Shown here: positions 8,889 through 63,313 of the stretch, piece after piece
Layout: every line of letters starts with the position of its first letter
Numbering within the stretch: the stretch's first letter is position 1
Source: a virus
Taxonomy: Duplodnaviria; Caudoviricetes
Length of the DNA stretch: 64,000 bases
IMG/VR virus record: IMGVR_UViG_3300021254_000020
Location: 1 to 64,000 of that record
Direction: 5' to 3' (one strand)
Program-made: the position numbers and the translations under genes
The notes under the pieces: model-generated
Database searches by the model: none
Told to the model about the DNA's origin: nothing
What the model saw: the letters and a program-made list of their open reading frames with translations, nothing else

Positions 8889-8903
8889 TATACTATAATA
8901 GTG
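8889..8903 (+). promoter_or_regulatory. Early-like promoter TATACTAT-N5-TG
   Basis: One of about 19 copies upstream of accessory transcription units. Confidence 0.75.
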
Positions 8904-9116
8904 TAATAAGGAAATGGGACACAACTCAAGGATTTTTGTGGACCATCTAATAAAAGCCATTGGGAAGTGTGATACTCTCAATCTAAAGGGTATGTGCCCG
9001 TCCTATGCTAGCAGGCCCAATCATCCTCTACCTCCTATAATCAGGGTGATGCGAGTTGGCTACTCGAAGGATAGCTAGCCTGAAAAGAAAGGTGACACCA
9101 CTCATCTTTCTTTTTT
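8903..9116 (+). ncRNA. Candidate structured small RNA with an ACCUCCU loop
   Basis: Promoter-to-terminator unit; hairpin 9020-9050 with loop CTACCTCCTATAATC; terminator 9083-9116. Confidence 0.55.
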
Positions 9117-9285
9117 GGTCGTGCGAACTTCTTTTGCTGTTCACTTGAGTCATTGTTTCTTTGTCATGAGAAATGTAAACTACTCTACCTCTTTAATGGG
9201 GTAGAGAGTTACATTTGCATTGACACTTTATTACATGTAGTATATTAGGGGTATCTAAGCTTAAAAGCATATAGAAAGGGGTTTA

Positions 9286-11547
9286 ATGGATATGCTTGAG
9301 AATTTACAGAACTATGGATACTATGTTGACCTAGTCAAAACTGGCAGAACTAGGGTCAACGCCAACCAAATAAGTATTCATAACTGGAGGGATCATTATC
9401 AATCCATTCTTAATATATTAAAGGATGGTATTGAGACAGACTGGGTGCAAAACATGTGCATTACAGTAGATTATGGGAATGGAGAGGATATTGATCTGTA
9501 TATTACGGATTATTATATCAATCTCTTGTTTTGGTATTTACCACTATCTCTAGAGGATACAGCCTTAACTCCTAAGTATCTCTTCTTCGAGGAGAAGATG
9601 ACTGGTAAGGCAATAAAGGAATATGTTGATAAGTTGTTTATTATTCCTCATCGTGGAATAGTAGACAATAAGATATTGAATAACGTAATTTCAGATTTTT
9701 TGTATAATTTCATTGATATTGATCAGTTCTCAATGTTCTTAGCAAATACTCTCAATCTTGAGGATACGATTGAGTTGATGAATGCATCTCCTGAATATGA
9801 TGCAATCATCCATGCAGATTTGTCTACTGAACCTTTGGAGAATGTAAAGAATAAAGGAATGGAGTATGTTGCTCAGGCTCAGAAACTCATTTATGACGCA
9901 GAGAATATAATGGGCCATGAACACTGCCTTCGTAATCCATTCGTATCTGGTGAAGGTATCAATAAGAAACAGTATAAAGAGAACTCTATTAATATAGGGA
10001 CTAAATCTGATGGTCAGGGTTCTATCTATCATACTATAATCAACCAGTCTTATATTACTGGTGGTCTTAATAAGCTGGAATATCAGTTTATTGATTCTGC
10101 TTCTGCCCGTGTAGCCCAGATTATCTCTAAGAAGAATGTTGGTGATAGTGGTGGGTTTGCTCGTATTTTAGGCCTTAATAATGTGGATACATTCTTACAT
10201 AGTGATCCTCATTTTGATTGTGGTACTAATAACTATCTAATTCAATTCATTCCTAATAAGAATGTATTTGAAATGCTTATTGGAAGATTCTATAAGCTTA
10301 ATGAACAAGGACAACTGTTGTGCATTCATGCTGAAGATACTCATCTTATAGGAAAGACTATATTGTTGAGATCTCCAGTATTTTGTGCTAGTCACGCTGC
10401 TGGTAAGGGTATATGTTATCACTGCTATGGTGAACTGGCACATACGAACCATGATATCTCTGTAGGAAGAATCGCTACTGAGATAATCACTGCTCAGTAT
10501 ACTCAGATGAGACTTTCTGCTAAGCATCTGTTAGAGACTAAGATCAAACCAATCCATTGGGTTGATGAGTTCTATGATTGGTTTACTTTGGATATAAATG
10601 GTATTCAAGTAAGACATGATATAGATGCAGCTAGTATTAATGGTTGGAAGTTATCTATCTCTCTTGATTCTATTCAACTTGAGAATGATGATGACTTCTA
10701 TAAACATGAGTATTATATGGATGGTGCTAATAGCACTATAGATGATGGTCCATTCTATAATGAGTACGTTACTGAATTTAGTGTAGTATCTCCTGATGGT
10801 AATACCATTATTCCTATCACATCTCATATCGAAGAAGAGGATGACGAGGAAGAAAAGGTACCATCTAAGTTATATATAACTGATCAGTTCGGTGCTCTCA
10901 TCCGTAAGAACATATCCATTGATGATGAAAGTAATGATATTGAAATTAATCTGAATGAGCTGATTGATACCAATATATTTATAATAAAGATGGAGAATAA
11001 TGAACTCGGTTCTGCTCTTGACACATTCGTTGATCTCATCAATAAGAGAGATGTAACTAAGAAGCTGAATGCATCTGAACTTGTACAGTCTCTCCAGCTT
11101 AATGTATTGAAAGGTAACATTCATTGTACTAGTATTCACTTAGAGGTCATTGTAGCTAATCAGATTAGATCTATTAATGATAGACTCTTAATGCCGAATT
11201 GGTATAATAAGAATGAGCCATATGAGGTACTCACTCTTAATGAAGCACTCAAAGATAGTAGGTCTCCTATCATCAGTCTCACTTACTCTAAGTTAGCAGA
11301 TACTCTTAAGTATCCGCTTACATTCAAGAAGTGTGGAGCATCTATCTTTGACCTCTTCTATATACGGAAGCCACTCAAGTTTATCCACGCAGATCATGAT
11401 ATCTTAGATATCAATGATAAACACGCTCTTAAACCAGGAGATTCCCCAGTAGTATTCGCACATGATCATTCTGGAGAATATCCAAAGAATAGGCTTAATT
11501 ATGTAGAACCCTTCCGTGTAAGACCCAAAGACAGATTAGATGACTGA
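9286..11547 (+). CDS. Multisubunit RNA polymerase beta'-like subunit, C-terminal fragment (phage split RNAP)
   Basis: LRSPVFC...GICYHCYG zinc site, TQMRLSAKH trigger-loop-like motif, SIHLEVIV; no DFDGD; precedes an SF2 helicase as in phiKZ-like phages. Confidence 0.88.
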   Translation: MDMLENLQNYGYYVDLVKTGRTRVNANQISIHNWRDHYQSILNILKDGIETDWVQNMCITVDYGNGEDIDLYITDYYINLLFWYLPLSLEDTALTPKYLFFEEKMTGKAIKEYVDKLFIIPHRGIVDNKILNNVISDFLYNFIDIDQFSMFLANTLNLEDTIELMNASPEYDAIIHADLSTEPLENVKNKGMEYVAQAQKLIYDAENIMGHEHCLRNPFVSGEGINKKQYKENSINIGTKSDGQGSIYHTIINQSYITGGLNKLEYQFIDSASARVAQIISKKNVGDSGGFARILGLNNVDTFLHSDPHFDCGTNNYLIQFIPNKNVFEMLIGRFYKLNEQGQLLCIHAEDTHLIGKTILLRSPVFCASHAAGKGICYHCYGELAHTNHDISVGRIATEIITAQYTQMRLSAKHLLETKIKPIHWVDEFYDWFTLDINGIQVRHDIDAASINGWKLSISLDSIQLENDDDFYKHEYYMDGANSTIDDGPFYNEYVTEFSVVSPDGNTIIPITSHIEEEDDEEEKVPSKLYITDQFGALIRKNISIDDESNDIEINLNELIDTNIFIIKMENNELGSALDTFVDLINKRDVTKKLNASELVQSLQLNVLKGNIHCTSIHLEVIVANQIRSINDRLLMPNWYNKNEPYEVLTLNEALKDSRSPIISLTYSKLADTLKYPLTFKKCGASIFDLFYIRKPLKFIHADHDILDINDKHALKPGDSPVVFAHDHSGEYPKNRLNYVEPFRVRPKDRLDD

Positions 11548-11617
11548 GGTATAATAGGGGGTAGAGGGTACTTATCCCTCTACCCTACTAATTTATATAT
11601 AAGGAGGAAACAGTATA

Positions 11618-13189
11618 ATGGGATTATATTCAGCCCCATATGGGCCTATAGATATTCTTGCCTCGTCCGTTGTTATTCATAATTATAATCCAGGAGATAA
11701 TCAAAGGCTGGAGCATTTGTTTTCTGTATGGTCTAAAATAAAGCATAGATATGAGTCGATGGGTATATTTTATGATTATGAGCATAAAGATTTATACCTT
11801 CCTGGTGGTATTAATCTCGCTCACGTAATTAATTCCTTTAGCTCAGATCTTATTAAAAGGATACCACCCGATCCGTACAAGCATATAGGAGACGTAAAGT
11901 GCCGAATCAAGCCTAGAGACGATCGACAATGGGAAGCAATGAGATTCTGCTTAGGTTTAGAGGAATATTCCGAGAATAGAAATAGATCTCAGATAGGTCT
12001 TAATCTTAATACTGGTGTTGGTAAGACTGCTATAGCCGTATTAACATTCGCTTTTTATGGATTGCGCACAATAATGATAACTGCATCTTCATCTTGGCTG
12101 GACCAGTGGAGGGATAGGTTATTAGAGTATACTGATCTTAAACCAAGCGAGATATATACTATATCTGGAACTCCAGGAATAGTGAAACTATTCAATGGAA
12201 TGAAGAATACTGAAAATATTAAATTTCTGCTTTGTACCCATAGTACTCTTCAAACGTATGCTAAAAAACATGGATGGGGATCTATTCGGAAACTGTTTAT
12301 GGATCTCCAAATAGGGATTAAACTAGTAGATGAAGCACATCTTTATTTTTCGAATATAAATATGATAGACGCGTTCAGTAATTGTCTAAAGACCTATTAT
12401 CTAACAGCTACTCCTATGAAGTCTGATAGATATGAGGATAAGATATATCAGAGATCTTTTGAGACTGTTCCTAAGATTACTCTCTTTGACGAAGAGAATG
12501 ATCCTCATGCTAATGTGCTTATAGTGAAAATTAATTCCCACCCAAGTCCTTATGATAAAGAGGCTATAAATAGTGGTAATTACGGATTCAATGTATTAAA
12601 ATATGTGGATTACTTTATGCAGAATACTATATATTATCCATTACTTCATATCACTCTTTATCACTGTTTATCTGAAATGAAATCAGAAGATAGGGTATTA
12701 ATCTATCACGCTACTAATAGTGCAGTAATGCAATCTTATCGATGGATTAAGTACCATTATGGCCAGTATTCTATAGGTATATATACCTCCCTAGTTCCAA
12801 AGGAGATTAAGCCTGATCAGCTTAATTGCAAGATCATATTATCAACTACTAAGTCAGCTCAGGCATTGCTCGATATAGCTCATCTTAAGAAGATTATTGT
12901 ATTTGTAGAACCATACAATTCTGCTCCTATCACTAGACAGGTACTTGGACGTCTTCGTGATTCAGATACAGAACTGATTGAGATAGTGGACTATGGCTTT
13001 TCCAGACTTCATACCTGGTCTGTACATAGAAAAAAGATATATCAGACGTATGCAAAGGAAATTAATGAGGTCCAGTTCAATGAGCAAGAATTAAACGATG
13101 CTGTGCTTCAGATTAATAGAGCAGAAAAACAAGAACTGGAGAATCGTATGATAGGAAGACCTCTACCAGTTGAGTATGTGAATAAATGA
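11618..13189 (+). CDS. Superfamily 2 helicase
   Basis: TGVGKT Walker A, DEAH, LTATP, QVLGRLR. Confidence 0.92.
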   Translation: MGLYSAPYGPIDILASSVVIHNYNPGDNQRLEHLFSVWSKIKHRYESMGIFYDYEHKDLYLPGGINLAHVINSFSSDLIKRIPPDPYKHIGDVKCRIKPRDDRQWEAMRFCLGLEEYSENRNRSQIGLNLNTGVGKTAIAVLTFAFYGLRTIMITASSSWLDQWRDRLLEYTDLKPSEIYTISGTPGIVKLFNGMKNTENIKFLLCTHSTLQTYAKKHGWGSIRKLFMDLQIGIKLVDEAHLYFSNINMIDAFSNCLKTYYLTATPMKSDRYEDKIYQRSFETVPKITLFDEENDPHANVLIVKINSHPSPYDKEAINSGNYGFNVLKYVDYFMQNTIYYPLLHITLYHCLSEMKSEDRVLIYHATNSAVMQSYRWIKYHYGQYSIGIYTSLVPKEIKPDQLNCKIILSTTKSAQALLDIAHLKKIIVFVEPYNSAPITRQVLGRLRDSDTELIEIVDYGFSRLHTWSVHRKKIYQTYAKEINEVQFNEQELNDAVLQINRAEKQELENRMIGRPLPVEYVNK

Positions 13190-13211
13190 TTATATACTAT
13201 ATTGGTGAGAG

Positions 13212-13454
13212 GTGATTAATATGAAATATGAGATTAATTGGAAACCAGTAGATGAAAAGGACACTAGTGTGACATCTTATGGTACAATGATACGTGAAGT
13301 AGATATAGGGCGTAAACTTACATTCAAAGATGTATCAGAGGTACATAAGAGGGATGGTCATTATGTTCAGCTGTTAGAGGAATCTGATGATCTTATAAGA
13401 TTCATCGATGCCAGTTTTGGTAAAATAATGACATATAAGCTTATTGAAGAATAA
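13212..13454 (+). CDS. Hypothetical protein
   Basis: Own early-like promoter (13193-13207) and terminator near 13456-13490. Confidence 0.65.
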   Translation: MINMKYEINWKPVDEKDTSVTSYGTMIREVDIGRKLTFKDVSEVHKRDGHYVQLLEESDDLIRFIDASFGKIMTYKLIEE

Positions 13455-13582
13455 GATAGAGTAGACCGGTATGGTCTACTCTTCTTTTTTGTAAATTGCG
13501 TATTTTTTAAACATATATTATTGAAGTGAGAAAGTGCATAATAGATGTATGCGCTAAAGGTTACCTAAGGGAGGTAATTAAA

Positions 13583-13972
13583 ATGAAAGTTTGGTTCATT
13601 GAAGCTCGTTCGAAGTATTCTTCCAGTTGGGTTACTCTCAATTATACTTTTAACGAGAAAGAAGCTTTTGGTTGCATTGACGACATCGAAAAGGCTAATC
13701 CAGACTCTAAGGCCCGGTATTACGTAGTTAATATCAAAAAGGATGTCCATGGTTACGATAATGGTGTTGGAGATCACTTCGTATGTCTTGTACGAGTATG
13801 CCGCTATGATAATGAAGAAACTGGCAGAGCTGGAGTATTCGATTCTATCGAAGAAGCAAAAGAATTCGCAAGACATGCTGAGGACGAGACCCATTATTGC
13901 ACAATTGATTACATCCAGCTTGCATCAGAGAGAAAGAGCTGGAAAGCCGGAAAGTATGACAACTGGGCATAA
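13583..13972 (+). CDS. Hypothetical protein with two short internal repeats
   Basis: GGGAGG RBS places the start at 13583; layout resembles 44444-44815. Confidence 0.65.
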   Translation: MKVWFIEARSKYSSSWVTLNYTFNEKEAFGCIDDIEKANPDSKARYYVVNIKKDVHGYDNGVGDHFVCLVRVCRYDNEETGRAGVFDSIEEAKEFARHAEDETHYCTIDYIQLASERKSWKAGKYDNWA

Positions 13973-13989
13973 TCCCAAACACTATTTAA

Positions 13990-14157
13990 AGGGTAGGCAT
14001 GGAAGCCTACCCTTATTTTTTTGAGAAGAGGATGTTATGAGATTCTAATCGAAAGGAAGCCAACATGATTAGCTCTATACTTTTTCGTACTGAGCCGTAT
14101 GGTAAACACAAAGGAGTGATAGTCATCCTCTTCCCATATTGAAAATGGCCTGCCATT
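13990..14157 (-). ncRNA. Candidate late small RNA with two CU-rich loops
   Basis: GACA-N6-TA promoter 14168-14157; closing helix 14023-14034/14124-14135; loops UCCUUU and UUCCUUUC; G-U pairs favour the minus strand. Confidence 0.55.
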
Positions 14158-14267
14158 ATTAGATTGTCAATCACATGCCGCCTTGTACTAAAATATGATA
14201 TAAGAATATACTATAATAATGAGAGTAGAATCTCTATTCAAATATATCAATGAAATGAGGAATAAAA

Positions 14268-15632
14268 ATGAACTACGAAAATGATGAATTCTATTGGATT
14301 AACTTTGCTCCTACCCGAGTCCATGTAAAGGGAACCCCTAGACGTGAACATGTGTTTCTACAAACAGTCGGGTATTATTATAAAGGAGAAATATTTAGAT
14401 CAACACCACTATTTCCCGGAATAATGGTGGGTAACTACGGTACAATATATGATTTTAGAGGGTTTAAGATAGAACCTAATATGGATACAGAGGGGTATTT
14501 GGTTGTTACCGTTTTTTCAGCAAAAGATGGTAAGTGCATCCTTACTGGTGTCCATAGATTAGTAATGATAGCTCACGACTTTATTGAGAACTATGAAGAA
14601 AAGCAGGTGAATCATAAAAATGGCGACAAGACCTTTAATTATTTTAACCCATTTGATAGAGAAGGTTGTAACTTAGAATGGTGTACTGCGAAAGAAAACC
14701 GGAATCATGCAGATAGAACCGGATTGAGAAAACATAAATTTTCTGATGAAACGGTTAGAACCTTATTAAAATTATTACGAGCCGGATATACCAAAAGACA
14801 AGCTTCTGAAAAATTAGGATACGATTATTATAAAGATGGGGTAGATAATCTGCTTAATAAAATACTACATAACGGTTATTTTAGTTGGATTTCCAAAGAT
14901 TTTCCTGATATATTAGCAACTGCTAAACCTGCCTTTAGGTATAACTTCCCTGATGAAATAATACATGGCATCTGTCAAATGATTCTAGCGCGAAGGACTG
15001 TGGATGAAATTCAAGCATATGCTGGGATGACTGATAAGGATAGGAATACATTTCACCACTTTATTATATCTCTTAAAAACAATAATCATCCTAGATATCT
15101 CCATATAACTAGCCAGTATTTCAAACCTGGAGAAAGAGTTCCAAGAATGCAAAAAGCAGTAAAACAAGGTGATGTGTACATAAGACCCCAAGTAATTTAC
15201 ACAGATGAGTTCTTAAGAGGAGTAATGGAAGGGCTCAGAAAAGGACTTAGTATGAAGCAAGCTGTCGAATCATTAGGATATGAATTTACCACACAAGTAA
15301 ATAAAACGATAACCAACATGCTGACCGAAAATTCATACACTCATATATCCAAAGACTACCCCGATGTATTGGCAAATAGAAGGCGACGTGATAAGTTTGT
15401 CTTCTCTGATGAATATATTCATACAATGTGTCAGATGATGATACAGGGATGTACTGTAGATGATATAATGGCTAAGGTTGGATTGAATGATAATAGGGCT
15501 GGGTTTATGCTTTTCTTAGAAAGACTAAGAAAAAATAAAGTTGCAGCCTACAAACATATCACTACTCAATATTTTAAGCCAGGAATGAACATCAAAATGA
15601 TACCTGTGCGTAAACGTAAGGATACTAAATAA
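14268..15632 (+). CDS. HNH homing endonuclease with four C-terminal helical repeats
   Basis: VHRLV...VNHKNGDK..N...NLEWCTAKENRNH; four repeats ending Y/WxHI(S/T)xx(Y/F). Confidence 0.88.
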   Translation: MNYENDEFYWINFAPTRVHVKGTPRREHVFLQTVGYYYKGEIFRSTPLFPGIMVGNYGTIYDFRGFKIEPNMDTEGYLVVTVFSAKDGKCILTGVHRLVMIAHDFIENYEEKQVNHKNGDKTFNYFNPFDREGCNLEWCTAKENRNHADRTGLRKHKFSDETVRTLLKLLRAGYTKRQASEKLGYDYYKDGVDNLLNKILHNGYFSWISKDFPDILATAKPAFRYNFPDEIIHGICQMILARRTVDEIQAYAGMTDKDRNTFHHFIISLKNNNHPRYLHITSQYFKPGERVPRMQKAVKQGDVYIRPQVIYTDEFLRGVMEGLRKGLSMKQAVESLGYEFTTQVNKTITNMLTENSYTHISKDYPDVLANRRRRDKFVFSDEYIHTMCQMMIQGCTVDDIMAKVGLNDNRAGFMLFLERLRKNKVAAYKHITTQYFKPGMNIKMIPVRKRKDTK

Positions 15633-15680
15633 AATAAGAAGAGGTAGGAACATATCCTACCTCTTTTTTTGTTTGTTTGA

Positions 15681-18086
15681 TTACATTGCACCTTGCTGTT
15701 GGGCATTAAGCTGGTCACGCTTCACCGCGAGTTCCACCTTTGCCTCATCTAGGAGTTCATTTATCTTCTCTACTGGCAAGAAGGACTTGAAGTAGTGATT
15801 CATGAGTTTGCTAATAAACTCATTCTTAAGGTTCTCGTCAGTCTGAAGGCTGCCAAGTTTCATAATCACTATATTCTGAATCAATTCATTAGCTACTGCC
15901 AGTATCTGGCTAGTATTGGTAAAATTGAGCATAACCGGCGCAGGAAGAGTTACTTCTAGTTCATCTTCTACTCCATATTCGCACTGGTATACCTTGGTGA
16001 ATATTTCGCTTAAAAAATCTGAGTATCGGCTCTGTCGGTCATATACGCGAATCAAGAATCTAGAGTTACTCATAGTGATATGAGTAGCAGTCTGTTCCTG
16101 ATAACGGCTATTAACCATCTCTAATGATACACCAGTCAGATTAACTGCCATCTCCTCTAGCATATTCATGAAATCAGATTTGATATCAATGTTCTGCCCT
16201 GGCATTACTTCGAAGTTTACAGGAGATTCTCCCTGTCTGTTTTGAGGAATGACTAGGTCATTGAATCTACCAGTTATATTGAGGATATTGTTCATATTCT
16301 CTACTTGGCGTAGATTGAAGTTAGATTGCTTGATCTGGTTAATTACGTTAAGCAGTACTGCTTGGATGTTTGTATCTACAGTCTGACGTACTTGATAGAT
16401 ACGTTTATCATATCCTCTAGTTAATAGTGCTAAACTATTACTAATGTACAAGCAAGATAATAGTTTAGCAGGGAATAATGATTTAGCAATATCACTAATA
16501 CCTCTATGAGTTTTATCATTCATATCAAAATATACATGAACCATATCACTAGGAGGAATGAAGCTAACCCTAATTCTGCTAACCTTACCATTACCATTAT
16601 CAGCATTATATTTGAGAATGGTATAGATCTCTCTAGCCAAGTCTTGGTTTGCATTAACGAATTGAGCGTCAATACGTCTACTAATACTCATAGCTATCTT
16701 AGTCAATACCTGATCATCTATGGTGGGACGATTCATATCTTCTCTAGCTCTAGTAGCACGACGTGGACGAAGACCACCCATAGTACTAGTGAATGTAGTT
16801 TGATCAAACTGCATCTTATTATTGCATTCAATATAGTAATAGCCTAGGCAAGTTTCATCTATATAAAGAGGTTTAACCATAGTATGGTCTAGTAAGCGTA
16901 AGATACAGCCAGGAACATTAATCTCTTGTTCCAATGACTGCTTTTTATTTTTTGTAATAAAACCATCTGTAGCTAGGCTAGTAGGAGATTCCATTGTACC
17001 TCCTTTAGCAAACTTCTCAAACTCTTTATGCATATTTCTTAGATAGTTATTATTACTGAGCATAGTAGTAGCAGTAGTTAATTTTTCTACAGCTTCTGAT
17101 ATTGCATTATCCTCTGCTAGCATCCTAGCATTTTCTACCATTATTCTACGTTTATTCTGAGCTTCCATAAACAAGCTAGGAATAACTCCAGTTTTGTTTA
17201 TCTCTATTTCTATTCCATCTTCTACGGAAGTAGAACCCATAGTACTAGTATCATCGCTAAAACGTACTGATTCTTGTAATACTCCATTGTTATTATCTAC
17301 TCCATAAAAGGCAGTGAATCTAGTACATGATGGAGATATAGCCTCATTCATAACCTCTTCAGTTAATGCAGTATCTTCCGTAATGAAGGCATCACTTTTC
17401 GTTTTCTGCAATAGTCTCCCTAGAGCTTTATTATAGCTTACTATATATACAAACTGCTCACCATATTTAGCAGTCTTTCTATAGCACTTATCAGCAAACT
17501 CTCTTAGCAAATATTTCTTTTTGAATGATTCTATATCAGCATGAGCAGTATCGGAGCTACCCATACCACTACCATCCACCTGATCTACTTCTTTACCAGT
17601 AGCGTTAGTTAAACGGGTTATCTCCATATTATCCTGGTTGAAGTGATCAGCACACATAACATGATCTGCTTTGATGTCTAATGCTTCATCCAGTTTAGGG
17701 ACATATTTGCAGACAGTATCTATTTCTCTATCTAAATCTCTAGCTACAGCATTCTGGCTGTACATATCCATCATATCAGCCAAAGCAGATTCATCGCTTA
17801 GAGCCATTCTAAACTCTTTAATCATATCATCATCATTGTTAGCCAATGTACGACTATACAAATCAGATATATTCCTACCATTATAACGCAATCTAGTCCT
17901 ATCAATAAGACCATTAAGATCCTTATCTATAGTACGTCTAATAGAGTCTATAAACTTAGCATCCTTATTATCACTATAATAGGTGTTCTTGTAAGCGGCA
18001 TCCAAGTCATTCTGTATCTTGGTGGCAATATTCTTATTAAGGGTAGTATCTAAATAAGAAAGATCTACTTTATCATTTCTAGCCAT
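15681..18086 (-). CDS. Portal protein (T4 gp20-like)
   Basis: YGEQFVY, LLTRGYDKRIYQV, FEVMPGQ; directly downstream of tube and sheath; AACA-N6-TA promoter. Confidence 0.78.
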   Translation of the reverse strand: MARNDKVDLSYLDTTLNKNIATKIQNDLDAAYKNTYYSDNKDAKFIDSIRRTIDKDLNGLIDRTRLRYNGRNISDLYSRTLANNDDDMIKEFRMALSDESALADMMDMYSQNAVARDLDREIDTVCKYVPKLDEALDIKADHVMCADHFNQDNMEITRLTNATGKEVDQVDGSGMGSSDTAHADIESFKKKYLLREFADKCYRKTAKYGEQFVYIVSYNKALGRLLQKTKSDAFITEDTALTEEVMNEAISPSCTRFTAFYGVDNNNGVLQESVRFSDDTSTMGSTSVEDGIEIEINKTGVIPSLFMEAQNKRRIMVENARMLAEDNAISEAVEKLTTATTMLSNNNYLRNMHKEFEKFAKGGTMESPTSLATDGFITKNKKQSLEQEINVPGCILRLLDHTMVKPLYIDETCLGYYYIECNNKMQFDQTTFTSTMGGLRPRRATRAREDMNRPTIDDQVLTKIAMSISRRIDAQFVNANQDLAREIYTILKYNADNGNGKVSRIRVSFIPPSDMVHVYFDMNDKTHRGISDIAKSLFPAKLLSCLYISNSLALLTRGYDKRIYQVRQTVDTNIQAVLLNVINQIKQSNFNLRQVENMNNILNITGRFNDLVIPQNRQGESPVNFEVMPGQNIDIKSDFMNMLEEMAVNLTGVSLEMVNSRYQEQTATHITMSNSRFLIRVYDRQSRYSDFLSEIFTKVYQCEYGVEDELEVTLPAPVMLNFTNTSQILAVANELIQNIVIMKLGSLQTDENLKNEFISKLMNHYFKSFLPVEKINELLDEAKVELAVKRDQLNAQQQGAM

Positions 18087-22100: not shown

Positions 22101-22880
22101 TTATTGCTTTTCTTTAATAAATTTCTCAATAATAATCAACCTATATTCGTTTTCTTCTTTAGATAGTGGTACGTTATTGGAATCGTTTCTTTCTATCATT
22201 CTAAGTGCTAAGTCATTTTTAGTGTGTATATTAACTCCCTTATCTATCATCATATTAGCTACCCTATACTTAGCCTTCTTACAAGCCTTAGCAAAAGCCA
22301 TAGAATCATTCTTGCTAGGATCAGCTCCTAGATCTAATAGTTTAACTGCTAATCTGGTATCCTCACCATCTATAGCATATAATAGAGCATCTCCATTTCC
22401 AGCATTACCCCAATTATCCCATTTAGGTTTAACGTCATTACTATTAATGAAGATAAGAGTCTCTAATAAAATACTATACCTATTAGACTCAGCTATAGCA
22501 GTAATGACCTGATCTACTGCTTCTTCTAGATTCTCTGGTTCGTGTTCCTTGACCCAAGAGAGATAAGCTGCTGTCATATTAGATGGATAAGTATTATTTT
22601 TAGCAGAGCATCCTAAGCATGCTCTTACTATCATCAGATCTGGCACAAACTCTGGGTGACTCATGATACTAAATGCTATTTGATTGTATCTGCTTTCTAA
22701 TATCCTACCCCATAGATAGGGGTTTTGGTAGAATCGTCTACCATACATTATGAATGGATGTTCACCATTCATCATATAAGTCTCATTAGTCTTACTATTG
22801 TAATCATAATCCTTTACATTAATCCCTTTAGCTTTCAGCATGAATAATATTTGGCTCCATGTGTTAATTTTCTCTCCCAT
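22101..22880 (-). CDS. Ankyrin-repeat protein
   Basis: ALLYAI...VKLLDLGADP, AFAKAC...MIDKGVNIH. Confidence 0.72.
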   Translation of the reverse strand: MGEKINTWSQILFMLKAKGINVKDYDYNSKTNETYMMNGEHPFIMYGRRFYQNPYLWGRILESRYNQIAFSIMSHPEFVPDLMIVRACLGCSAKNNTYPSNMTAAYLSWVKEHEPENLEEAVDQVITAIAESNRYSILLETLIFINSNDVKPKWDNWGNAGNGDALLYAIDGEDTRLAVKLLDLGADPSKNDSMAFAKACKKAKYRVANMMIDKGVNIHTKNDLALRMIERNDSNNVPLSKEENEYRLIIIEKFIKEKQ

Positions 22881-34471: not shown

Positions 34472-34553
34472 ATATAAATATATAAGTTAACGGGATAGAG
34501 GAGATAATCCTCTATCCTGTAAAAATGGCTTTCTTCAATTGTATATTATCATT

Positions 34554-34630
34554 GTGAATAGAGGTTGTATGATTAGCGAATCATACGTAAAATAGCTATG
34601 TTCCTTTATCGCTACCTTTAGAAAGGAAGG
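34554..34630 (+). promoter_or_regulatory. Conserved structured 5' leader, copy 1
   Basis: GAGGTT-[hairpin]-GTAAAATAGCTATG-x-TCCT, shared with 60399-60478. Confidence 0.6.
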
Positions 34631-56877: not shown

Positions 56878-56895
56878 ATACTAATACCTCCTATA

Positions 56896-57540: not shown

Positions 57541-57603
57541 ACTCTATCACCTTCTAAAAAAGAGATCCCCGTTAAGGGATCTCTTGTTTTATTAAGGGGC
57601 TGA

Positions 57604-58425: not shown

Positions 58426-58633
58426 AATGTTTACCTCCTAAACACTAAATAAAATAAAAAATATTCATGTACCTAGGTGTTAATTGATTATTCAAGTCTG
58501 ATGACCAATCAGACTTGCAATACACACTAGAGTACATTTACGGCTATAGTGGTTTCTCCCACTACATTTATATAGTATATAGTTGAGAGTTATATTAGGA
58601 TAAATTGAGGTAGACCGAAGTCTACCTCTTTTA

Positions 58634-59839
58634 TTATTGATCTTTCTGGGCTTTGTATTTATTTAGCAGTGATTTGGATTTGGTATAAGACGTACCGCCC
58701 TTGGAGAGTTCTTTACGTCTCTTATCCATTTCCTTAAAGATACCAGTCCATTGTTTAAATACCTCTTTCTCATCAGGAGAGATATTCTCATCCATGTAGT
58801 CTTTCACATACATCATTGAAGTATTGATGCTATGGAGCAAATCAGGAAGAGCATCAGGCTCTGATTTATCCAGATTCTCTTGTTTCAGCATAAATCCTAC
58901 CAAATCATTCTTTGAGATATCCAAGCAGTCTACTACATTAGTCTGAATAGGATATTTAGCATTACGCATCATATCCAACATATCGTCTTCATTGATAGTA
59001 GTATAGCCATATTCTTCTAATAGCATATCGTCATCAATTCGACTCAAACGTTTAACGAAGTTAGCCAGCTCCTGTTTTTCTATCTTACTGGGGGTAAGCT
59101 CTTGTAACCTCTCAAGAGTCTTGATAGCAGAGATACGATAACCAAGAACGTCTTTATATATACGCATAACCCAAGCTAGTGTGATATATTTATTAGTGAT
59201 TTCCTTCTTGGTATTATAGCCAAGCTTATCAATTTTATCCATAGCAGATTTGATATCCCCTCTATAATCAGTCCAAGTGATGAAGTCAGCAAAGGTATCT
59301 TCGGCTTCCTTATATACACCGAGTTCGAAAATGCTAGTGCATTTTCTCAGACTATCCCTAAAAGCATAGGAGAGGATTTTCTGATAGTGAATAACGTCAC
59401 TCAGTTTCAATACGTCATCATTGTCTATCAGATATTTATCCAAAGCATGTACTACCTCTTCAGCAGGTGCACTATTATTTGTAAGAGCTCCAATATCATG
59501 TACAATTAAAGCAGCAATCTGCTTATAGTTTAACCCCAAATAAGAACCAAACAGTTTACCATCTAATTCTAGTACATATTTATCTACCCTATACCGATTA
59601 TCTTTAGTGATAATCTGTACTACCTTTTCTGGTTCGATCTCAGGCATAGCATATAACCCAAAGAATAACTTATCCTCATTTCTAGTGAAAATAACGTTAT
59701 CACATTCTGTTTCTGGGAATAATTTATTTAATGCTGATTTGAGATCATCCAGATTGCGTTGTACTGCATTACGCATAATAGCAGATATAGCCAGTTCTAC
59801 ATCTTCATATGCATTCCTAGTTTTATTTTCAGAATTCAT
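58634..59839 (-). CDS. Hypothetical protein, possibly a head component
   Basis: 401 aa; GACT-N6-TA promoter; AAGGAGG RBS. Confidence 0.65.
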   Translation of the reverse strand: MNSENKTRNAYEDVELAISAIMRNAVQRNLDDLKSALNKLFPETECDNVIFTRNEDKLFFGLYAMPEIEPEKVVQIITKDNRYRVDKYVLELDGKLFGSYLGLNYKQIAALIVHDIGALTNNSAPAEEVVHALDKYLIDNDDVLKLSDVIHYQKILSYAFRDSLRKCTSIFELGVYKEAEDTFADFITWTDYRGDIKSAMDKIDKLGYNTKKEITNKYITLAWVMRIYKDVLGYRISAIKTLERLQELTPSKIEKQELANFVKRLSRIDDDMLLEEYGYTTINEDDMLDMMRNAKYPIQTNVVDCLDISKNDLVGFMLKQENLDKSEPDALPDLLHSINTSMMYVKDYMDENISPDEKEVFKQWTGIFKEMDKRRKELSKGGTSYTKSKSLLNKYKAQKDQ

Positions 59840-59909
59840 TAGTAGTCCTCCTTTATTTCAACAGCTTCGTAAGAAGTTCTTATTATTAAGTCGAGAGGAT
59901 GTGATTCTA

Positions 59910-60086
59910 ATGGAAAATAAGAACCATTATGTTATTGGCCCTAGGGCTTTGAATGACTACACGGCCAACCTACCAGAAAATGATCCTAGAAAGAAACAGA
60001 AGCCATGGTGGGAGAAAGAGAAGAAGGTGGCTAGTGTTGTAGTAGCATCTCCTATGGAGAGTAAAGTAAGACCTGAGAATTTCTAA
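59910..60086 (+). CDS. 58-aa microprotein with capsid-identical motif IGPRALNDYTAN
   Basis: AACA-N6-TA promoter 59860-59871, GAGAGG RBS, terminator 60102-60128; synonymous-only divergence from the capsid copy. Confidence 0.75.
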   Translation: MENKNHYVIGPRALNDYTANLPENDPRKKQKPWWEKEKKVASVVVASPMESKVRPENF

Positions 60087-60129
60087 TTCATACACAAGAA
60101 CGGAGTAGAGGTACCCATCCTCTACTCCA

Positions 60130-60322
60130 ATTCCTTGTTTTAGTGTTTGAGAGAATACTAGTTAGTATCATCTTCTATTGTCGGAAAGGAACAACAGTAG
60201 TCGTATGATACATAGCATAGGCTTGCCAAAGCCATCCAAATATTAAGAGATTAATGAATTCGATCAGCGGATTTCCGTTCCAGCCCCAACCATTAGCTGT
60301 ACCGCCGACTACTATACTGTTA
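60130..60322 (-). ncRNA. Candidate structured small RNA with a UCCUUUCCG loop
   Basis: ORF-free; AGTAGTCG/CGACTACT long-range helix; several hairpins; G-U pairs favour the minus strand. Confidence 0.45.
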
Positions 60323-60398
60323 GTACCTATGTAAAAACCTATTTTGATAAATAACTGTGTTCAGTAAAAATGCATATTTTCAATTGTATATTATCGAG

Positions 60399-60478
60399 GT
60401 GAATAAGAGGTTACTTAGATATAGATCTAGGTGTAAAATAGCTATGATCCTCTGTTTACTTATCCTATAGAAAGGGGT
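60399..60478 (+). promoter_or_regulatory. Conserved structured 5' leader, copy 2
   Basis: GTAAAATAGCTATG at 60433-60446 after a covarying hairpin. Confidence 0.6.
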
Positions 60479-60485
60479 ATGTGCC

Positions 60486-60818
60486 ATGTCGACTCGTTTA
60501 TTTAAGATCAGATCATTTATGGATGCAGATATCGTTTCTGATAGCACCCATATTTATGATCGTATGATCGAACGCAAAATGAATATCCGTGATTTCCTGT
60601 ATCTCCTTGAATCCGCAGTAGATGACGTTCTTGATGAAGTCGATAGTGGCTTCGAAATTATGCTTCGTTCAAAGAGCATGAAAAAGAGCATCGTATTTGT
60701 AGCGGTATACAACGAGGAAAAGGACATCATTGATATTCAGATGATCACTTGCATCAATAAGTTTGCGGTAGTATCCGAAAAGGATGCTTATAAAACGCAT
60801 GCTTATGATGTAGCTTGA
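60486..60818 (+). CDS. Early protein with a DUF4258/RelE-like HxxxRMxER motif
   Basis: STHIYDRMIERKMN; C-terminal MITCI strand. Confidence 0.55.
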   Translation: MSTRLFKIRSFMDADIVSDSTHIYDRMIERKMNIRDFLYLLESAVDDVLDEVDSGFEIMLRSKSMKKSIVFVAVYNEEKDIIDIQMITCINKFAVVSEKDAYKTHAYDVA

Positions 60819-60961
60819 CAATTTAATATGGAGAAAGATAGGCAGTTAATTCTGCCTATCTTTTTTGCAATAGTTTTGTTATTCCGTTATATATTATTGT
60901 AGTGAGAAAGTCAATATTATAGGATATTGATTAGTGCATATACCTAGAAAGGGGTATTAGT

Positions 60962-61213
60962 ATGAACAGTATTACGCTAAAATTAACAAAGGGTCAGATC
61001 GAGTTTCTCAAAACACACAAAGATGTTATGGAAGACGTGAGCAAATATCTCACAGTAGAAACCATCATTGACTTGGCATCTCAAATTCGCGATTTGGAAA
61101 TGGATGATATCTCTGCATATCATAGTGGAGATATTGCGAATGTCGAGTTAGATGTCAAAATGGATACCAATGGGAATTGTTCTATTGGTATTGATAATGT
61201 TGATGTAAAGTAA
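60962..61213 (+). CDS. Hypothetical early protein
   Basis: Early-like promoter 60890-60904; GAAAGGGG RBS. Confidence 0.65.
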   Translation: MNSITLKLTKGQIEFLKTHKDVMEDVSKYLTVETIIDLASQIRDLEMDDISAYHSGDIANVELDVKMDTNGNCSIGIDNVDVK

Positions 61214-61222
61214 GAGGAGGAA

Positions 61223-61918
61223 ATGACCATGTTAGCAAATAAAGTATTTAGCCAGGACGTAAATACCGTAATCAAATTCATTAGCAATTTATCTCACGAT
61301 GTTACTGAAAATAAATTATCATTCCAGTTTGAGATCAAAGCATTGAAAAATAGCGGTAAAAACGAGAAAGCCCATATACTTGAAAAACGCTGCGCTATGT
61401 TCTTAGAAGAAGCAAAGAAAGTAGAACAGGTATATGAGCATAACCTCGAGCAGGGCACCAAATTACATCGTTTATTAATTTCGAAGTATGGGTACAATGA
61501 AGCTACTAGTGAACTTAATAAAGAGCTGGAGCTTGATAACTTTAAAGATTATTTCATCAATAATTATTCTCTGTTCCGCAAAGCTGTAGGACTCACCCGC
61601 AAGCAGGTAGGAATCGAATTACATGTAACAGAAACGTATATCTATAGTATAGAACGAAATAATGATGAGAAATTCTTCAGCCTGTATTTCCTTGCAGTTT
61701 TGAAAAAGAGTAAATCTCTTGGGAATTTCGATATGCTCATTCTCAGCCATAGGGAAAAGGAGTTGTTCGAAAACATCGTGCTTACAAACAAAAACAAATA
61801 TAATGTAAGAGAATCTCTCACTCCTCAAAAAGTTGCTATGCTTGAAAAAGAGGAATGTGTAGATTACGATGGTATTAAAATTCCCAAGTTTCTGATGAAC
61901 GTGTTATTTAATTCTTAA
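61223..61918 (+). CDS. XRE-type helix-turn-helix protein
   Basis: FRKAVGLTRKQVGIELHVTETYIYSIERN. Confidence 0.7.
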   Translation: MTMLANKVFSQDVNTVIKFISNLSHDVTENKLSFQFEIKALKNSGKNEKAHILEKRCAMFLEEAKKVEQVYEHNLEQGTKLHRLLISKYGYNEATSELNKELELDNFKDYFINNYSLFRKAVGLTRKQVGIELHVTETYIYSIERNNDEKFFSLYFLAVLKKSKSLGNFDMLILSHREKELFENIVLTNKNKYNVRESLTPQKVAMLEKEECVDYDGIKIPKFLMNVLFNS

Positions 61919-61931
61919 GGAGGAAAATAAA

Positions 61932-62318
61932 ATGAGAGAAAAATTGATTGCAGGGTTGATTAACAGCGCAGATTCTATTCTTGAAGTAGCAAAAACTGGC
62001 AATAAGTTGGCAATGCCAGTATACTATTTATTCAGTTTGGTCGGTATGGCAATATCTCTTCCAATAACTATATTGGTCACAATTCCGTTCATTAGTAATG
62101 CACATGTTAGATCATTGCTTATTAGATCTATCAATAATACTATAAGAATGGTAGGGATCTCCTTTGTCGGTATGTTTCTATCTCCATTATCGCCTACGTC
62201 TTTCATTATAGTAACGATTGAGTCATTAGAAGCTAGCCTAAATGGTTATGGCACTAGCTTAAAAATGTATGATCGTCCATACGATGAGAAGACCGTAAAA
62301 GAATATTTGGCAGCATAA
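61932..62318 (+). CDS. Membrane protein
   Basis: Two to three hydrophobic segments; resembles the N-terminal half of 62428-63159. Confidence 0.7.
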   Translation: MREKLIAGLINSADSILEVAKTGNKLAMPVYYLFSLVGMAISLPITILVTIPFISNAHVRSLLIRSINNTIRMVGISFVGMFLSPLSPTSFIIVTIESLEASLNGYGTSLKMYDRPYDEKTVKEYLAA

Positions 62319-62427
62319 GCATAACAAATCCCCCTCACTTGAGGGGGTTATTTTTTGTAAACTGCAATACGATTATATATTATACTAGTGAGTGATAATA
62401 AATTGAAATTTAAAGGAGGATAAACCT

Positions 62428-63159
62428 ATGCCTATTTTTGATCAATTTTTAATGAGACTTATCAGTGAGCTTATTGATTACGGAAGAGCAAATAATAAGT
62501 TTGCTATTGTCAGAAAACTACTAGGAGTCTTTGTATTTTCAACAGCTCTTACATTGATGAGCACTATACTTCTTCCATTTTCTGTGTTACTGGGTAAAGA
62601 TAGTTTGAGTAGTTGTTTTAAAAGCATATATGTATATGGTCGTCTACTTGGAGCTTCTCTGATAGGAATTCCAGTTACAATAATTAACCCTAAAGATGTG
62701 GTAATATCTGTAGTGACTTTGTTAGCAGATGTAATCAAACTGTTCTCTGGAAAGGACGTCAATTTCGGACCTTCTGATGATAAGGATGCTATGCTTAAAG
62801 TTATATTAAATACTGAACCTGGAGCTACTGTAGTATTTAATGTACCAAATCAACCTACGATTTCTATTGAAGATCAGATCAATGATGAATTGAGAAATAA
62901 TACTTTGTTTAAAAGAAGGTTTGATACTAATGCACAATTATACGATGCGTATTGGCCCATGTATACTAATATGATGGAAGAATTAAAGAAGCTTCTCAAA
63001 TCAAGCCCAAATGAATTTGATAGTTTAATGCATATTAAAGTAGATATGACTAATGAGTTCAATGCATTATCGGCAGAGATAATCAATTTACAATCTGATA
63101 CTGATTTTGAGATAATGGATTCCAAGATCAGAAATTTTATGAACAAGTATAAATCATAA
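62428..63159 (+). CDS. Membrane protein with a soluble helical C-terminal domain
   Basis: Hydrophobic N-half; early-like promoter 62376-62390. Confidence 0.72.
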   Translation: MPIFDQFLMRLISELIDYGRANNKFAIVRKLLGVFVFSTALTLMSTILLPFSVLLGKDSLSSCFKSIYVYGRLLGASLIGIPVTIINPKDVVISVVTLLADVIKLFSGKDVNFGPSDDKDAMLKVILNTEPGATVVFNVPNQPTISIEDQINDELRNNTLFKRRFDTNAQLYDAYWPMYTNMMEELKKLLKSSPNEFDSLMHIKVDMTNEFNALSAEIINLQSDTDFEIMDSKIRNFMNKYKS

Positions 63160-63179
63160 TATGATTATATACTATAGTA

Positions 63180-63313
63180 ATGTAGGAAGTATGACACTTG
63201 TGTTAACACAATGCATTCCTACATGTGTCTACATGGCATCGCTCATAGCGATGACCTCCAAAAAAGAAGAGCCTATATATCGCTGCTGTGGTTGATCGGT
63301 TCTTCTTTTTTTT
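63180..63313 (+). ncRNA. Candidate early small RNA with unpaired ACCUCC
   Basis: Promoter 63168-63182; stems 63180-63224 and 63237-63253; ACCTCC at 63254-63259; terminator to 63313. Confidence 0.55.

Follow-up and report, generated by a model that had tools for sequence, protein, structure and literature searches.

Five structured non-coding stretches in an AR9-like jumbo phage are probably elements of different kinds, two of them conserved candidate RNAs with pyrimidine-rich loops

Five non-coding stretches and their signals

The window analysed here (64,000 nucleotides) is the first 64 kb of the 266-kb genome of an AR9-like jumbo phage known from metagenomes only. It contains five non-coding stretches, units 1 to 5 (Table 1), which lie where an initial annotation had placed them and which, as sequence comparison confirms, are mutually unrelated. 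Rfam and tRNA searches of all five units give no match, and none of the five contains a conserved ORF. They are probably transcribed segments of the phage genome. They are real structured stretches, yet they do not look like one system: two occupy a 3'-UTR position, and the others are a leader, a convergent non-coding RNA and a promoter-terminator cassette.

Table 1. Positions of the five units and of their signals and structures in the window
Feature	Position	Strand	Description
Unit 1 early promoter, virion RNAP type	8886..8903	+	full match to tTATATACTATA-N3-RTG
Unit 1	8903..9116	+	5' part of ~380-nt early leader of nvRNAP beta'-like gene 9286-11547
Unit 1 hairpin	9020-9050	+	loop ACCUCCU at 9030-9036, unpaired probability 0.98
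Unit 1 terminator-like hairpin and U6	9081-9116	+	
Remainder of beta' leader	9117..9285	+	hairpin 9183-9206; late-type promoter GACACTTTATTAC 9222-9234; RBS AAAGGGG
Unit 2 late-type promoter	14157..14168	-	GACAatctaaTA; full late motif GACAatctaaTAA; +1 A14157
Unit 2	13985..14157	-	structured RNA in 3'-UTR position
Unit 2 long-range stem	14136-14124 with 14034-22	-	13 bp
Unit 2 UCCUUU	14115 and 14057	-	
Unit 2 bidirectional terminator	13989-14014		
Unit 3	41692..41900	-	multi-hairpin RNA immediately past the stop codon of gene 41899-43197 (virion structural)
Unit 3 late-like motif	overlaps stop codon of gene 41899-43197	-	only tACAggaaagTAA, weak
Unit 3 closing stem	41885-79 with 41748-38	-	
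Unit 3 H1	41873-42	-	
Unit 3 H2	41831-04	-	loop UACUCCUC
Unit 3 H3	41800-41767	-	loop ACCCCUUGA at 41787-79
Unit 3 H4	41737-10	-	loop CCCCUU at 41726-21
Bidirectional terminator hairpin	41653..41690	.	common to unit 3 (-) and interspaced array 41392-41687 (+)
Unit 4	60100..60322	-	conserved ncRNA candidate
Unit 4 late-like motif	60321-60310	-	AACAgtatagTA, weak (only AACAgtatagTAg)
Unit 4 hairpin	60211-60165	-	loop UUCCUUUC at 60191-84
Unit 4 end hairpin	60104-60130		common to unit 4 and convergent 58-aa gene
Unit 5	63165..63313	+	orphan early promoter-to-terminator cassette; full early promoter
Unit 5 TSS and 5' hairpin	TSS G63182; hairpin ends 63224	+	
Unit 5 hairpin 2	63235-56	+	
Unit 5 ACCUCC	63254-59	+	
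Unit 5 terminator	63260-63313	+	

Both promoter motifs were derived from the whole 266-kb genome. The early consensus, tTATATACTATA-N3-RTG (core TATACTATA-N3-RTG), has 52 copies genome-wide, mostly ~30 nt before a Shine-Dalgarno (SD) sequence, and is also found in relatives. The late consensus is (G/A)ACA-N6-TAA; ACA-N6-TAA is found 47 times in upstream regions versus 2.9 expected, and 61 of its 102 copies lie between genes, as a rule 32-48 nt ahead of an ATG, while 41 fall inside genes by chance. Both classes parallel those of AR9, given by Lavysh et al. (2017, PMC5312081) as early AAATATATATTAT-6N-G and late AACA-6N-TA/G. Full early promoters precede units 1 and 5 and a full late promoter precedes unit 2, whereas units 3 and 4 have weak late-like motifs. 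Units 1 and 5 each terminate with a hairpin and U-run on their own strand; the hairpins ending units 2, 3 and 4 belong to convergent + strand genes and have their T-run on the + strand. The initial annotation, which had every unit run from promoter to terminator, is borne out in part.

Fold z-scores are -2.4, -5.1, -6.2, -2.6 and -6.5 for units 1 to 5, and in all five the claimed strand reaches a better minimum free energy (MFE) than its complement. The CU-rich strings that had been described as exposed in every unit are present and mostly predicted to be unpaired (probability 0.67-0.98), but the string of unit 4 reaches only 0.40 in a single-sequence fold. Anti-SD words are only mildly enriched, with 18 5-mers versus 10.2±3.3 in dinucleotide shuffles (p ~0.013, with no correction for the motifs having been chosen post hoc), and at 19.9/kb they are no denser than in the genome's intergenic DNA as a whole (12-23/kb). 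Units 3, 4 and 5 are no more complementary to the regions where translation of phage genes starts than shuffled controls are. As to the two ribosome-binding site (RBS) types that had been ascribed to early genes, AAGGGG is found at 16 genes and does lean that way (of those whose promoter can be recognised, 5 are early and 1 is late), whereas GAAAGGA is unbiased, at 7 early to 7 late.

Units 1, 2 and 5: a probable leader, 3'-UTR segment and cassette

Unit 1 would form the first 214 nt of a long early leader of the beta' gene of the non-virion RNA polymerase (nvRNAP), ending in an attenuator-like hairpin, and a short RNA from it, if any, would be a by-product of premature termination. Its predicted start is G8903, the G six bases past the early motif, by analogy with AR9 (PMC5312081). 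The beta' gene corresponds to the AR9 beta' locus at 128-130 kb, and in relatives its sole early promoter sits 74-565 nt before the ATG (at -74 to -155 in the distant ones and at -360 to -565 among members of the window's clade). An early and a late promoter together mark the "continuously expressed" class of AR9 (PMC5312081). Three relatives (L003, L004 and L068) keep the hairpin and a GACAC-N5-TAC of the remainder of the leader, and at the unit 1 locus have a different leader RNA with an unpaired, invariant CCUCCUUAUG. Carriers of units 1 and 2 among the relatives are only near-identical or recombinant, and in two of them, L002 and L005, a 1-nt indel disrupts a 54-aa ORF of unit 1.

The HNH gene is absent from L005 (98% identical), and there unit 2 directly follows the stop codon of an 801-aa gene. 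This comparison identifies unit 2 as a 3'-UTR segment, apparently severed from its gene, now 1.5 kb away, by an HNH endonuclease insertion. Its promoter is one of the 61 intergenic ACA-N6-TAA sites and among the few without an ORF ~35 nt downstream. As a 47-codon ORF starts at +2 of the predicted start and stops just short of the terminator, unit 2 may encode a leaderless small protein.

Unit 5 would be an orphan early cassette within a hypervariable island of early genes, of which close relatives conserve the ends but exchange the body. In the 92% relative L096 the promoter and terminator are kept, the body is replaced and the ACCUCC is gone, so that the loop conservation anticipated in the initial annotation is not seen; two further orphan early units adjoin this counterpart in tandem. 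Relatives at 50-60% lack the island in which units 4 and 5 lie.

Conserved hairpins and loops in units 3 and 4

Unit 3 is kept in relatives with 84% and 68% identity in the neighbouring protein, and the copies from the window, L125 and L127 independently fold into a closing stem and four hairpins. Alifold predicts 46 consensus pairs, 12 of them with compensatory changes, the covariation evidence comprising only two or three sequences per unit. Identity over the segment is 81-83% (flanks, 82% and 81%) versus 66% at codon position 3, used as neutral sites. On rewritten stems, the H3 loop retains CCCC(C)U and the H4 loop CCCCUU, whereas the H2 loop is not conserved. On each strand, CCCCTT is found about once in 8.5 kb; a pair within 60 nt, each copy in a loop, is therefore unlikely to be due to chance. 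The G-U pairs and MFE point to the - strand, and in L125 the shared terminator carries U6 on the strand of unit 3. Unit 3 shows what had been named beforehand as the support to look for, unpaired loops that are conserved while their stems covary.

The same pattern is fainter in unit 4. This unit is 87% identical to its counterpart in L081, a 92% relative, versus 61-76% at codon position 3 (neutral), while the leader next to it stands at 54%. Its UUCCUUUC loop does not vary, and each of four one-sided changes turns G-U into A-U on the - strand, the substitutions being compatible on that strand only. Unit 4 has no ORF of at least 30 aa.

C-rich loops on hairpin stems are a signature of seed regions in Bacillota small RNAs (sRNAs). 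Units 3 and 4 would be RNAs from the late-gene strand, unit 4 convergent with an early-strand gene, in which selection maintains the hairpin architecture and the pyrimidine-rich loops; unit 2, like unit 3 placed just past a late gene's stop codon, is perhaps another RNA read from that strand. These candidates would most likely base-pair with purine-rich RBSs in the Bacillota manner. The natural partners of unit 3 would be AAGGGG-type RBSs, here mostly those of early genes, and its H3 loop has a 10-nt match to AAGGGGUAUU of two AAGGGG-RBS genes. Conservation and structure are seen directly in units 3 and 4, whereas pairing and its effect are what we infer; their promoters match weakly, and both units may be no more than 3' UTR or read-through.

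Competing readings and known systems

We consider it somewhat better than an even bet that the units are of three kinds: base-pairing RNAs, a beta' leader and an orphan cassette. The initial annotation had instead proposed five trans-acting sRNAs forming one translation-control system, which we think improbable. CU-rich motifs, mostly unpaired, do occur in every unit, and their pooled enrichment agrees with such a system, as do the CCUCCUUAUG of the alternative leader RNA and the CCUCCUUCC loop that a 53% relative has at the locus of unit 3. The unit 1 loop is also complementary to the common start-region motif TATAGGAGGT, with 18 ten-mer matches versus 4.1 in shuffles. Yet the units have neither sequence nor structure nor genomic context in common, the motifs were selected post hoc and are no denser than the intergenic average, units 2 and 3 are in 3'-UTR position, the 92% relative lacks the ACCUCC of unit 5, and early expression of the nvRNAP subunit requires read-through of unit 1. 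Nothing was found that binds these different elements together, a coordinated five-RNA system is not supported, and neither is the suggested division of labour, with early RNAs dampening host or late translation and late RNAs silencing early genes. That both early-promoter RNAs hold a 16S-like ACCUCC is borne out, but each site is also the exact complement of an SD and ATG on the opposite strand (TATAGGAGGT-N6-ATG and a 13-codon ORF in unit 1; GGAGG-N8-ATG and a 5-codon ORF in unit 5), as predicted if the sites were remnant RBSs. The estimated chance of such spacing opposite both motifs is ~0.01, and the unconserved body of unit 5, the displacement of unit 2 and the absence of the unit 4 and 5 island from 50-60% relatives also suit functionless leftovers, relic RBSs or UTRs of decayed or deleted genes with ordinary terminators. 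This reading is equally doubtful, as units 3 and 4 exceed neutral-site conservation, unit 3 with compensatory changes, full-strength early promoters precede units 1 and 5, and the claimed strands of these two fold 13-15 kcal/mol better than their complements.

A rather unlikely reading, though one with more in its favour than these, takes units 2, 3 and 4 as cis-acting parts of mRNAs, serving 3'-UTR stability, processing or protein binding, or, for unit 4, forming an extended 5' leader of the late gene that follows; proteins or the ribosome would contact the pyrimidine-rich loops, unless these are incidental. Units 2 and 3 run from a late gene's stop codon to its terminator, their own promoters are of a low-information type that also arises by chance inside genes, and the target searches are not significant. 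A transcript initiated at unit 4 could serve the 401-aa gene because that gene has no recognisable late promoter directly upstream. However, two identical C-rich loops on rewritten stems are the seed signature of Bacillota sRNAs, and unit 2 has a promoter fully matching the consensus and lies far from its former gene. Finally, the opposite strands might act as GGA/GGGG-loop sponges for a CsrA/RsmA-type protein, and the + strand of unit 3 would indeed display AAGGGGA, AAGGGGU and GAGGAG in three hairpin loops. We judge this highly implausible: that strand is promoterless and downstream of a strong + strand terminator, consensus G-U pairs become A-C mismatches on it, the opposite strand has the worse MFE in all five units, and the Rfam search gave no CsrB/RsmY-type match.

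The paper on Bacillus phage AR9 (Lavysh et al. 2017, PMC5312081) describes an AT-rich early motif with a G start six bases on, late ACA-N6-TA, dual-promoter genes that are continuously expressed, a class to which the beta' gene downstream of unit 1 is predicted to belong, and some late promoters driving antisense or orphan transcription; a search of its text finds no "noncoding", and the passages covered do not describe structured ncRNA. Unlike AR9, the early core here is TATACTATA, not TATATTAT, and the beta' protein shares only 28% identity with its AR9/PBS1 counterpart. In phiKZ-like phages, also jumbo and with their own RNAPs, sRNAs were predicted from transcript maps; phiKZ yielded a single 75-nt prediction, which a northern blot failed to confirm (Wicke et al. 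2020, PMC8244752) and which has no sequence relation to the units here.

Unit 5 appears closer to the PeSL (promoter-early stem-loop) cassettes of T4-type phages than to a conserved regulator. These combine a strong early promoter with a terminator stem-loop in hyperplastic accessory-gene regions (Arbiol et al. 2010, PMC2839356), and the content between repeated cassettes is shuffled among close relatives, a behaviour that unit 5 shares, as do the three units lying in tandem in L096. Unlike in PeSL, the promoter of unit 5 is of the virion-RNAP type, not sigma-70-like, and the cassette encloses an 80-230-nt structured body. Units 2 and 3 resemble 3'-UTR-derived bacterial sRNAs such as MicL, which are transcribed from a promoter within the upstream gene or at its end (PMC4102768), in that the promoter motif overlaps the 3' end of the preceding coding sequence, the mRNA terminator is shared and the putative seed is in an exposed loop; they differ in being phage-encoded, with predicted 5' ends. 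In units 3 and 4, the anatomy is that of the Bacillota sRNAs (RoxS/RsaE, Staphylococcus aureus RNAIII and the Rsa RNAs), with several CCCC/UCCC loops per RNA, complementary to G-rich SD sites, and a 3' terminator hairpin. There is no sequence or covariance-model similarity to these RNAs (Rfam) and, unlike them, the units are phage-encoded, in the 3'-UTR position of late genes, with a phage RNAP promoter if any.

Promoter classes and the five units

The window covers the first 64 kb of one 266,420-bp contig, at a GC content of ~36%; scans for tRNAs and for Rfam families at gathering score found neither in it. The gene downstream of unit 1, the first of five candidate small RNAs (units 1 to 5), encodes a 753-aa split RNA polymerase beta'-like subunit whose best named matches, at 28% identity, are the beta' genes of Bacillus phages AR9, PBS1, and their relatives. 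Megablast and blastn searches of GenBank phages returned no DNA-level relative, the AR9/PBS1 matches being distant and at the protein level only. Metagenomes contain many relatives of the phage, and the names of two sample series suggest a rumen or gut origin for several close ones.

The early promoter motif TATACTATA occurs in 52 copies genome-wide. Intergenic copies have the extended form tTATATACTATA-N3-RTG, usually ~30 nt ahead of the Shine-Dalgarno (SD) sequence, and the same motif precedes the beta' gene in relatives with as little as about 40% identity. Across the whole genome, searching upstream regions for gapped words yielded the late motif ACA-N6-TAA, observed 47 times in these regions against 2.9 expected; 61 of its 102 copies are intergenic, mostly 32 to 48 nt before an ATG, and 41 lie inside genes. 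The two classes correspond to the AR9 early (AAATATATATTAT-6N-G(+1)) and late (AACA-6N-TA/G(+1)) promoters as given in the AR9 paper (PMC5312081), where genes having both classes are described as continuously expressed. A scan for sigma-70 promoters, giving the same count as shuffles, is uninformative for this phage. The definitions drawn from this genome can be reused to annotate its uncultivated clade. Immediately 5' of the SD sequence, ~50 genes genome-wide carry TATAG (TATAGGAGG, TATAGAAAGG), for example upstream of window positions 22880, 44444, and 54949; this may be a third promoter or a processing signal.

The initial annotation had read units 1 to 5 as promoter-to-terminator RNAs forming a candidate anti-SD translation-control system. 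The five stretches do exist and have no sequence relation to one another, nor do their cores have paralogues in the genome. Fold z-scores are -2.4, -5.1, -6.2, -2.6, and -6.5 for units 1 to 5, with the lower free energy on the claimed strand in all five. As for promoters, units 1 and 5 match tTATATACTATA-N3-RTG in full, the AR9-type early (virion RNAP) consensus, which is AT-rich and has a G start six bases further on. Unit 2 has a full match (GACAatctaaTAA) to the AR9-type late (non-virion RNAP) motif, which starts transcripts at its final A, carries about 10 bits, and has 41 of 102 copies within genes. In units 3 and 4 the late-like matches are weak ones only (tACAggaaagTAA, overlapping a stop codon, and AACAgtatagTAg), and the early motif is absent from the own strand of units 2 to 4. 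The hairpins ending units 2 to 4 primarily terminate convergent + strand genes.

The CU-rich strings on which the proposal was built are present and mostly predicted to be unpaired. Anti-SD 5-mers number 18 in the units versus 10.2±3.3 in dinucleotide shuffles (p about 0.013, with no correction for the post hoc choice), and their density, 19.9 per kb, falls within the 12 to 23 per kb found generally in the genome's intergenic DNA; the statistical case for enrichment is thin. Permissive Rfam scans of the unit regions gave terminator-driven noise only, far below threshold. Overall, the observation was partly confirmed and the interpretation partly supported: a single five-part RNA system is not indicated, and units 1, 2, and 5 have more ordinary explanations. 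The set of such units extends beyond these five. Two further orphan early-promoter units without an ORF, both outside the window, are included in the table: the one on the + strand has a good terminator, two CCCUUG motifs, and a CUUCUUCCU terminator loop, and the one on the - strand contains UUCCCCUUAACC.

Coordinates of the units and neighboring features (positions in the phage record unless a relative is named)
Feature	Coordinates	Strand	Remark
Unit 1	8903-9116	+	
Unit 2	13985-14157	-	
Unit 3	41692-41900	-	
Unit 4	60100-60322	-	
Unit 5	63182-63313	+	
beta' gene	9286-11547		Downstream of unit 1
31-codon ORF	8681-8776	-	Unlisted
Orphan early-promoter unit	253365-253490	+	
Orphan early-promoter unit	140776-140420	-	
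Interspaced array	41392-41687	+	
Interspaced array	about 86246 downward	-	
~130-nt leader copy	60345-60480	+	
~130-nt leader copy	164937-164803	-	
~130-nt leader copy	187921-187807	-	
~130-nt leader copy	34510-34605	+	
~130-nt leader copy	244034-243947	-	
~170-nt leader RNA core	L003:9677-9844		beta' leader of 68% relative, after early promoter
~170-nt leader RNA core	L004:1869-2035		beta' leader of 68% relative, after early promoter
~170-nt leader RNA core	L068:5686-5857		beta' leader of 68% relative, after early promoter

Genomic settings of units 1, 2, and 5

The beta' gene has a sole early promoter, located 74 to 155 nt 5' of the ATG in distant relatives and 360 to 565 nt in the window's clade. 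Its product matches the AR9 locus at 128 to 130 kb, which from the AR9 gene map we take to be the C-terminal half of the non-virion polymerase beta' subunit. Genes for non-virion polymerase subunits require early expression. Early transcripts of the beta' gene, which start from 8889, must therefore cross unit 1 and the hairpin-U6; unit 1 makes up the 5' portion of a leader that has an attenuator-like stop. A late-type promoter is found at 9222, 3' of unit 1.

A 54-aa ORF in unit 1 was rejected as a gene, its SD sequence lying one base from the ATG and its frame being shifted by a 1-nt insertion in the relatives L002 and L005. Also set aside was the 98.6% identity of L002 in unit 1 as evidence of selection: identity falls from ~99% to ~75% along the adjoining gene, and this gradual decay marks L002 as a recombinant, so that the figure is no sign of selection. 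Nearby on the - strand, a 31-codon ORF for a hydrophobic peptide (MKKILVGWLIGW...) has its SD sequence 27 nt past an early promoter at 8807; it probably specifies a small membrane protein.

Three relatives (L003, L004, and L068) have at the unit 1 locus a different, strongly conserved structured core of 170 nt, in which an invariant unpaired CCUCCUUAUG adjoins a GGAGG/CCUCC hairpin. This core matches no Rfam family, and it lacks a conserved ORF, its indels not being multiples of three. A by-eye likeness (AGGCC.A, a hairpin, CUAC.CG) had made unit 1 a candidate for a diverged copy, which is unsupported by R1, a covariance model of the core: the window gave no hit with default filters and at best 1 to 3 bits with filters off, the training sequences scoring 183 to 190 bits. 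An exposed ACCUCCU is therefore predicted to recur at this locus in unrelated sequence, an intriguing pattern, though one drawn from two lineages.

For unit 2, the relevant comparison is with L005 (98% identical), which lacks 14187-15723, the stretch carrying an HNH endonuclease gene. There, unit 2 lies directly 3' of the stop codon of an 801-aa gene, and the late motif overlaps that stop. In the window, 14186-14170 is a relic of the last codons of the 801-aa gene (QGGM-stop), and the HNH gene, equipped with an early promoter of its own, has been inserted, relative to L005, into the 801-aa gene at its 3' end. The L005 arrangement and the relic together identify unit 2 as an element in 3'-UTR position that a homing endonuclease insertion has displaced; in the window, unit 2 can be expressed solely from its own late motif. 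A 47-codon leaderless ORF that fills the unit from +2 of the predicted transcription start site may be coding; the sole relative copy is identical. Two other relatives (L070 and L071) have no unit 2 homologue 3' of their 801-aa homologue and instead carry other elements, including + strand early gene starts.

An island of small + strand genes separates two conserved late genes, and unit 5 is situated at its edge; three related genomes (G002, G004, and G005) have this island replaced. The 92% relative L096 has an identical early promoter, and megablast aligns 63263-63371 (the terminator and beyond) at 82%; the 75-nt body is unalignable and lacks ACCUCC. Beside this homologue stand two further orphan early promoter-to-terminator units in tandem, making three in total. 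Unit 5 thus resembles the promoter-early stem-loop (PeSL) cassettes of T4-type phages (PMC2839356), which also combine an early promoter with a terminator stem-loop in a hypervariable region and keep their ends while exchanging content, but it has a promoter of the phage virion-RNAP type rather than a sigma-70-like one (TTGACA/TATAAT). The L096 region 490-2201 also has a 406-aa gene inserted between a 674-aa gene and its homologue of unit 5; two copies of the hairpin region with GGAGAGAGTC, which lies at 63318-63371 in the window, flank the insertion.

Conserved structure in units 3 and 4

Unit 3 is the strongest case among the five. Its start coincides with the stop codon of a gene for a virion structural protein (PHROG 3013), and it ends in a bidirectional terminator that it has in common with an interspaced array on the opposite strand. 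Homologues follow the same gene in the relatives L125 (protein 84% identical), L127 (68%), and L126 (identical). Folded independently, the window, L125, and L127 copies give one plan (z-scores of -6.2, -6.0, and -6.9), composed of an outer AGGA/UCCU pairing, a closing stem AUUGAGC/GCUCAAU, four hairpins (H1 to H4), and the terminator. H1 keeps its loop, UUCUGCCAUU, on a stem rewritten in L127, and H2 is wholly rewritten, its loop included. The stems of H3 differ in all three copies, with loops ACCCCUUGA, CCCCUUAA, and, in L127, CCCCCUAAAAA; in H4, two pairs are compensatory and the loop CCCCUU is retained. By RNAalifold on a plain MAFFT alignment, 12 of 46 pairs are changed on both sides. Conserved loops on covarying stems, the support that the initial annotation had looked to, are therefore found in unit 3, where H3 and H4 display CCCCUU in the window, L125, and L127.

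Relative to L125, the outer segments of unit 3 are 81 to 83% identical, versus 66% at third codon positions of the adjoining gene; drift has brought the middle segment down to about 43%, with its hairpins retained. G-U pairs and minimum free energy (MFE) point to the - strand, and the copies have no ORF in common. The 53% relative G002 has at this position an unrelated domain of several hairpins that includes a CCUCCUUCC loop. Pattern scans of IMG/VR with unit 3 and unit 4 motifs returned chance 17-mers or nothing. Interspaced arrays of YCAAT ... AATG motifs occur at two places in the genome; L125 retains the one adjoining unit 3 with changed unique segments, and the one near 86 kb begins directly after a full early promoter.

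Unit 4 is 87% identical in the relative L081, where the neighboring 401-aa protein is 92% identical, against a backdrop of 61 to 76% at third codon positions of three neighbor genes and only 54% in the adjacent + strand leader. It has no ORF of at least 30 aa. The consensus fold contains a long hairpin whose loop, UUCCUUUC, is invariant in L081, and all four substitutions in paired columns turn G-U into A-U on the - strand, where a + strand RNA would have mismatches. Drawn from one relative, L081, this evidence is suggestive and falls short of proof. A ~130-nt leader is present in five genome copies of 69 to 85% identity, each with the early-variant promoter TATATTAT-N6-G and ending in TATAGAAAGGGGTA plus ATG; the leader is not conserved in the 92% relative L081, which has in its place a different one with AGGAGG. 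Separating selection-maintained units (3 and 4) from a leader, a displaced UTR, and a shuffling cassette matters for the annotation of anti-SD small RNA candidates in giant phages.

Possible targets and relation to C-rich-loop RNAs

Targets were sought by counting exact complements in phage start regions, with shuffled controls; energies from whole-RNA duplexfold against start regions were uninformative. The unit 1 loop is complementary to TATAGGAGGT, which is frequent in phage start regions (18 ten-mer matches versus a shuffle mean of 4.1). The complement of this loop reads as TATAGGAGGT, six bases, and the ATG of a 13-codon ORF, and that of the unit 5 motif as GGAGG, eight bases, and the ATG of a 5-codon ORF. 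The 16S-like motifs are either relics of - strand gene starts or parts of RNAs antisense to a generic start region. For units 3 to 5, overall complement counts are not above shuffles. The H3 loop of unit 3 has matches of 10 nt in two early genes, 60962 and 164477, at AAGGGGUAUU. The initial annotation held that the late RNAs complement early-gene ribosome-binding sites (RBSs) of two styles. This applies to AAGGGG, found in 16 genes (5 early versus 1 late among those with a recognizable promoter), but not to GAAAGGA, with an early:late ratio of 7:7; the ratio for GGAGG is about 1:1. Its alternative, a CsrA/RsmA sponge on the opposite strand, is not borne out: GGA/GGGG loops occur on the unit 3 complement only, a strand that lacks a promoter, is disfavored by G-U pairs and MFE, and has no Rfam match.

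We regard it as unlikely that unit 3 is a late RNA that shuts off early proteins. It would be released late from the 3' end of the virion-protein mRNA, and its two invariant CCCCUU loops would pair with AAGGGG RBSs of an early-gene family, to which the five genes having the common ~130-nt conserved leader would belong. Early proteins would then be shut off by RNA at the early-to-late switch, with units 4 and 2 as putative further members of a late anti-RBS layer. To our knowledge, the timing of the program in jumbo phages with their own RNA polymerases is thought to rest on promoters alone. If true, a late conserved RNA blocking early-gene RBSs would add a post-transcriptional layer to this timing, and unit 3 would be a testable example in a Bacillota-type phage lineage.

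Covariance models of RsaE and related Rfam families have no match in the window at gathering score, and units 3 and 4 belong to no described family. RNAs of the RoxS/RsaE type in Bacillota are characterized by at least two conserved unpaired C-rich hairpin loops on varying stems. Units 1, 2, and 5 give no demonstrated case of such loops, unit 4 has one (UUCCUUUC), and unit 3 has two. Units 3 and 4 can be counted as new phage RNA candidates, whose mode of action may be that of the C-rich-loop small RNAs of Bacillota.
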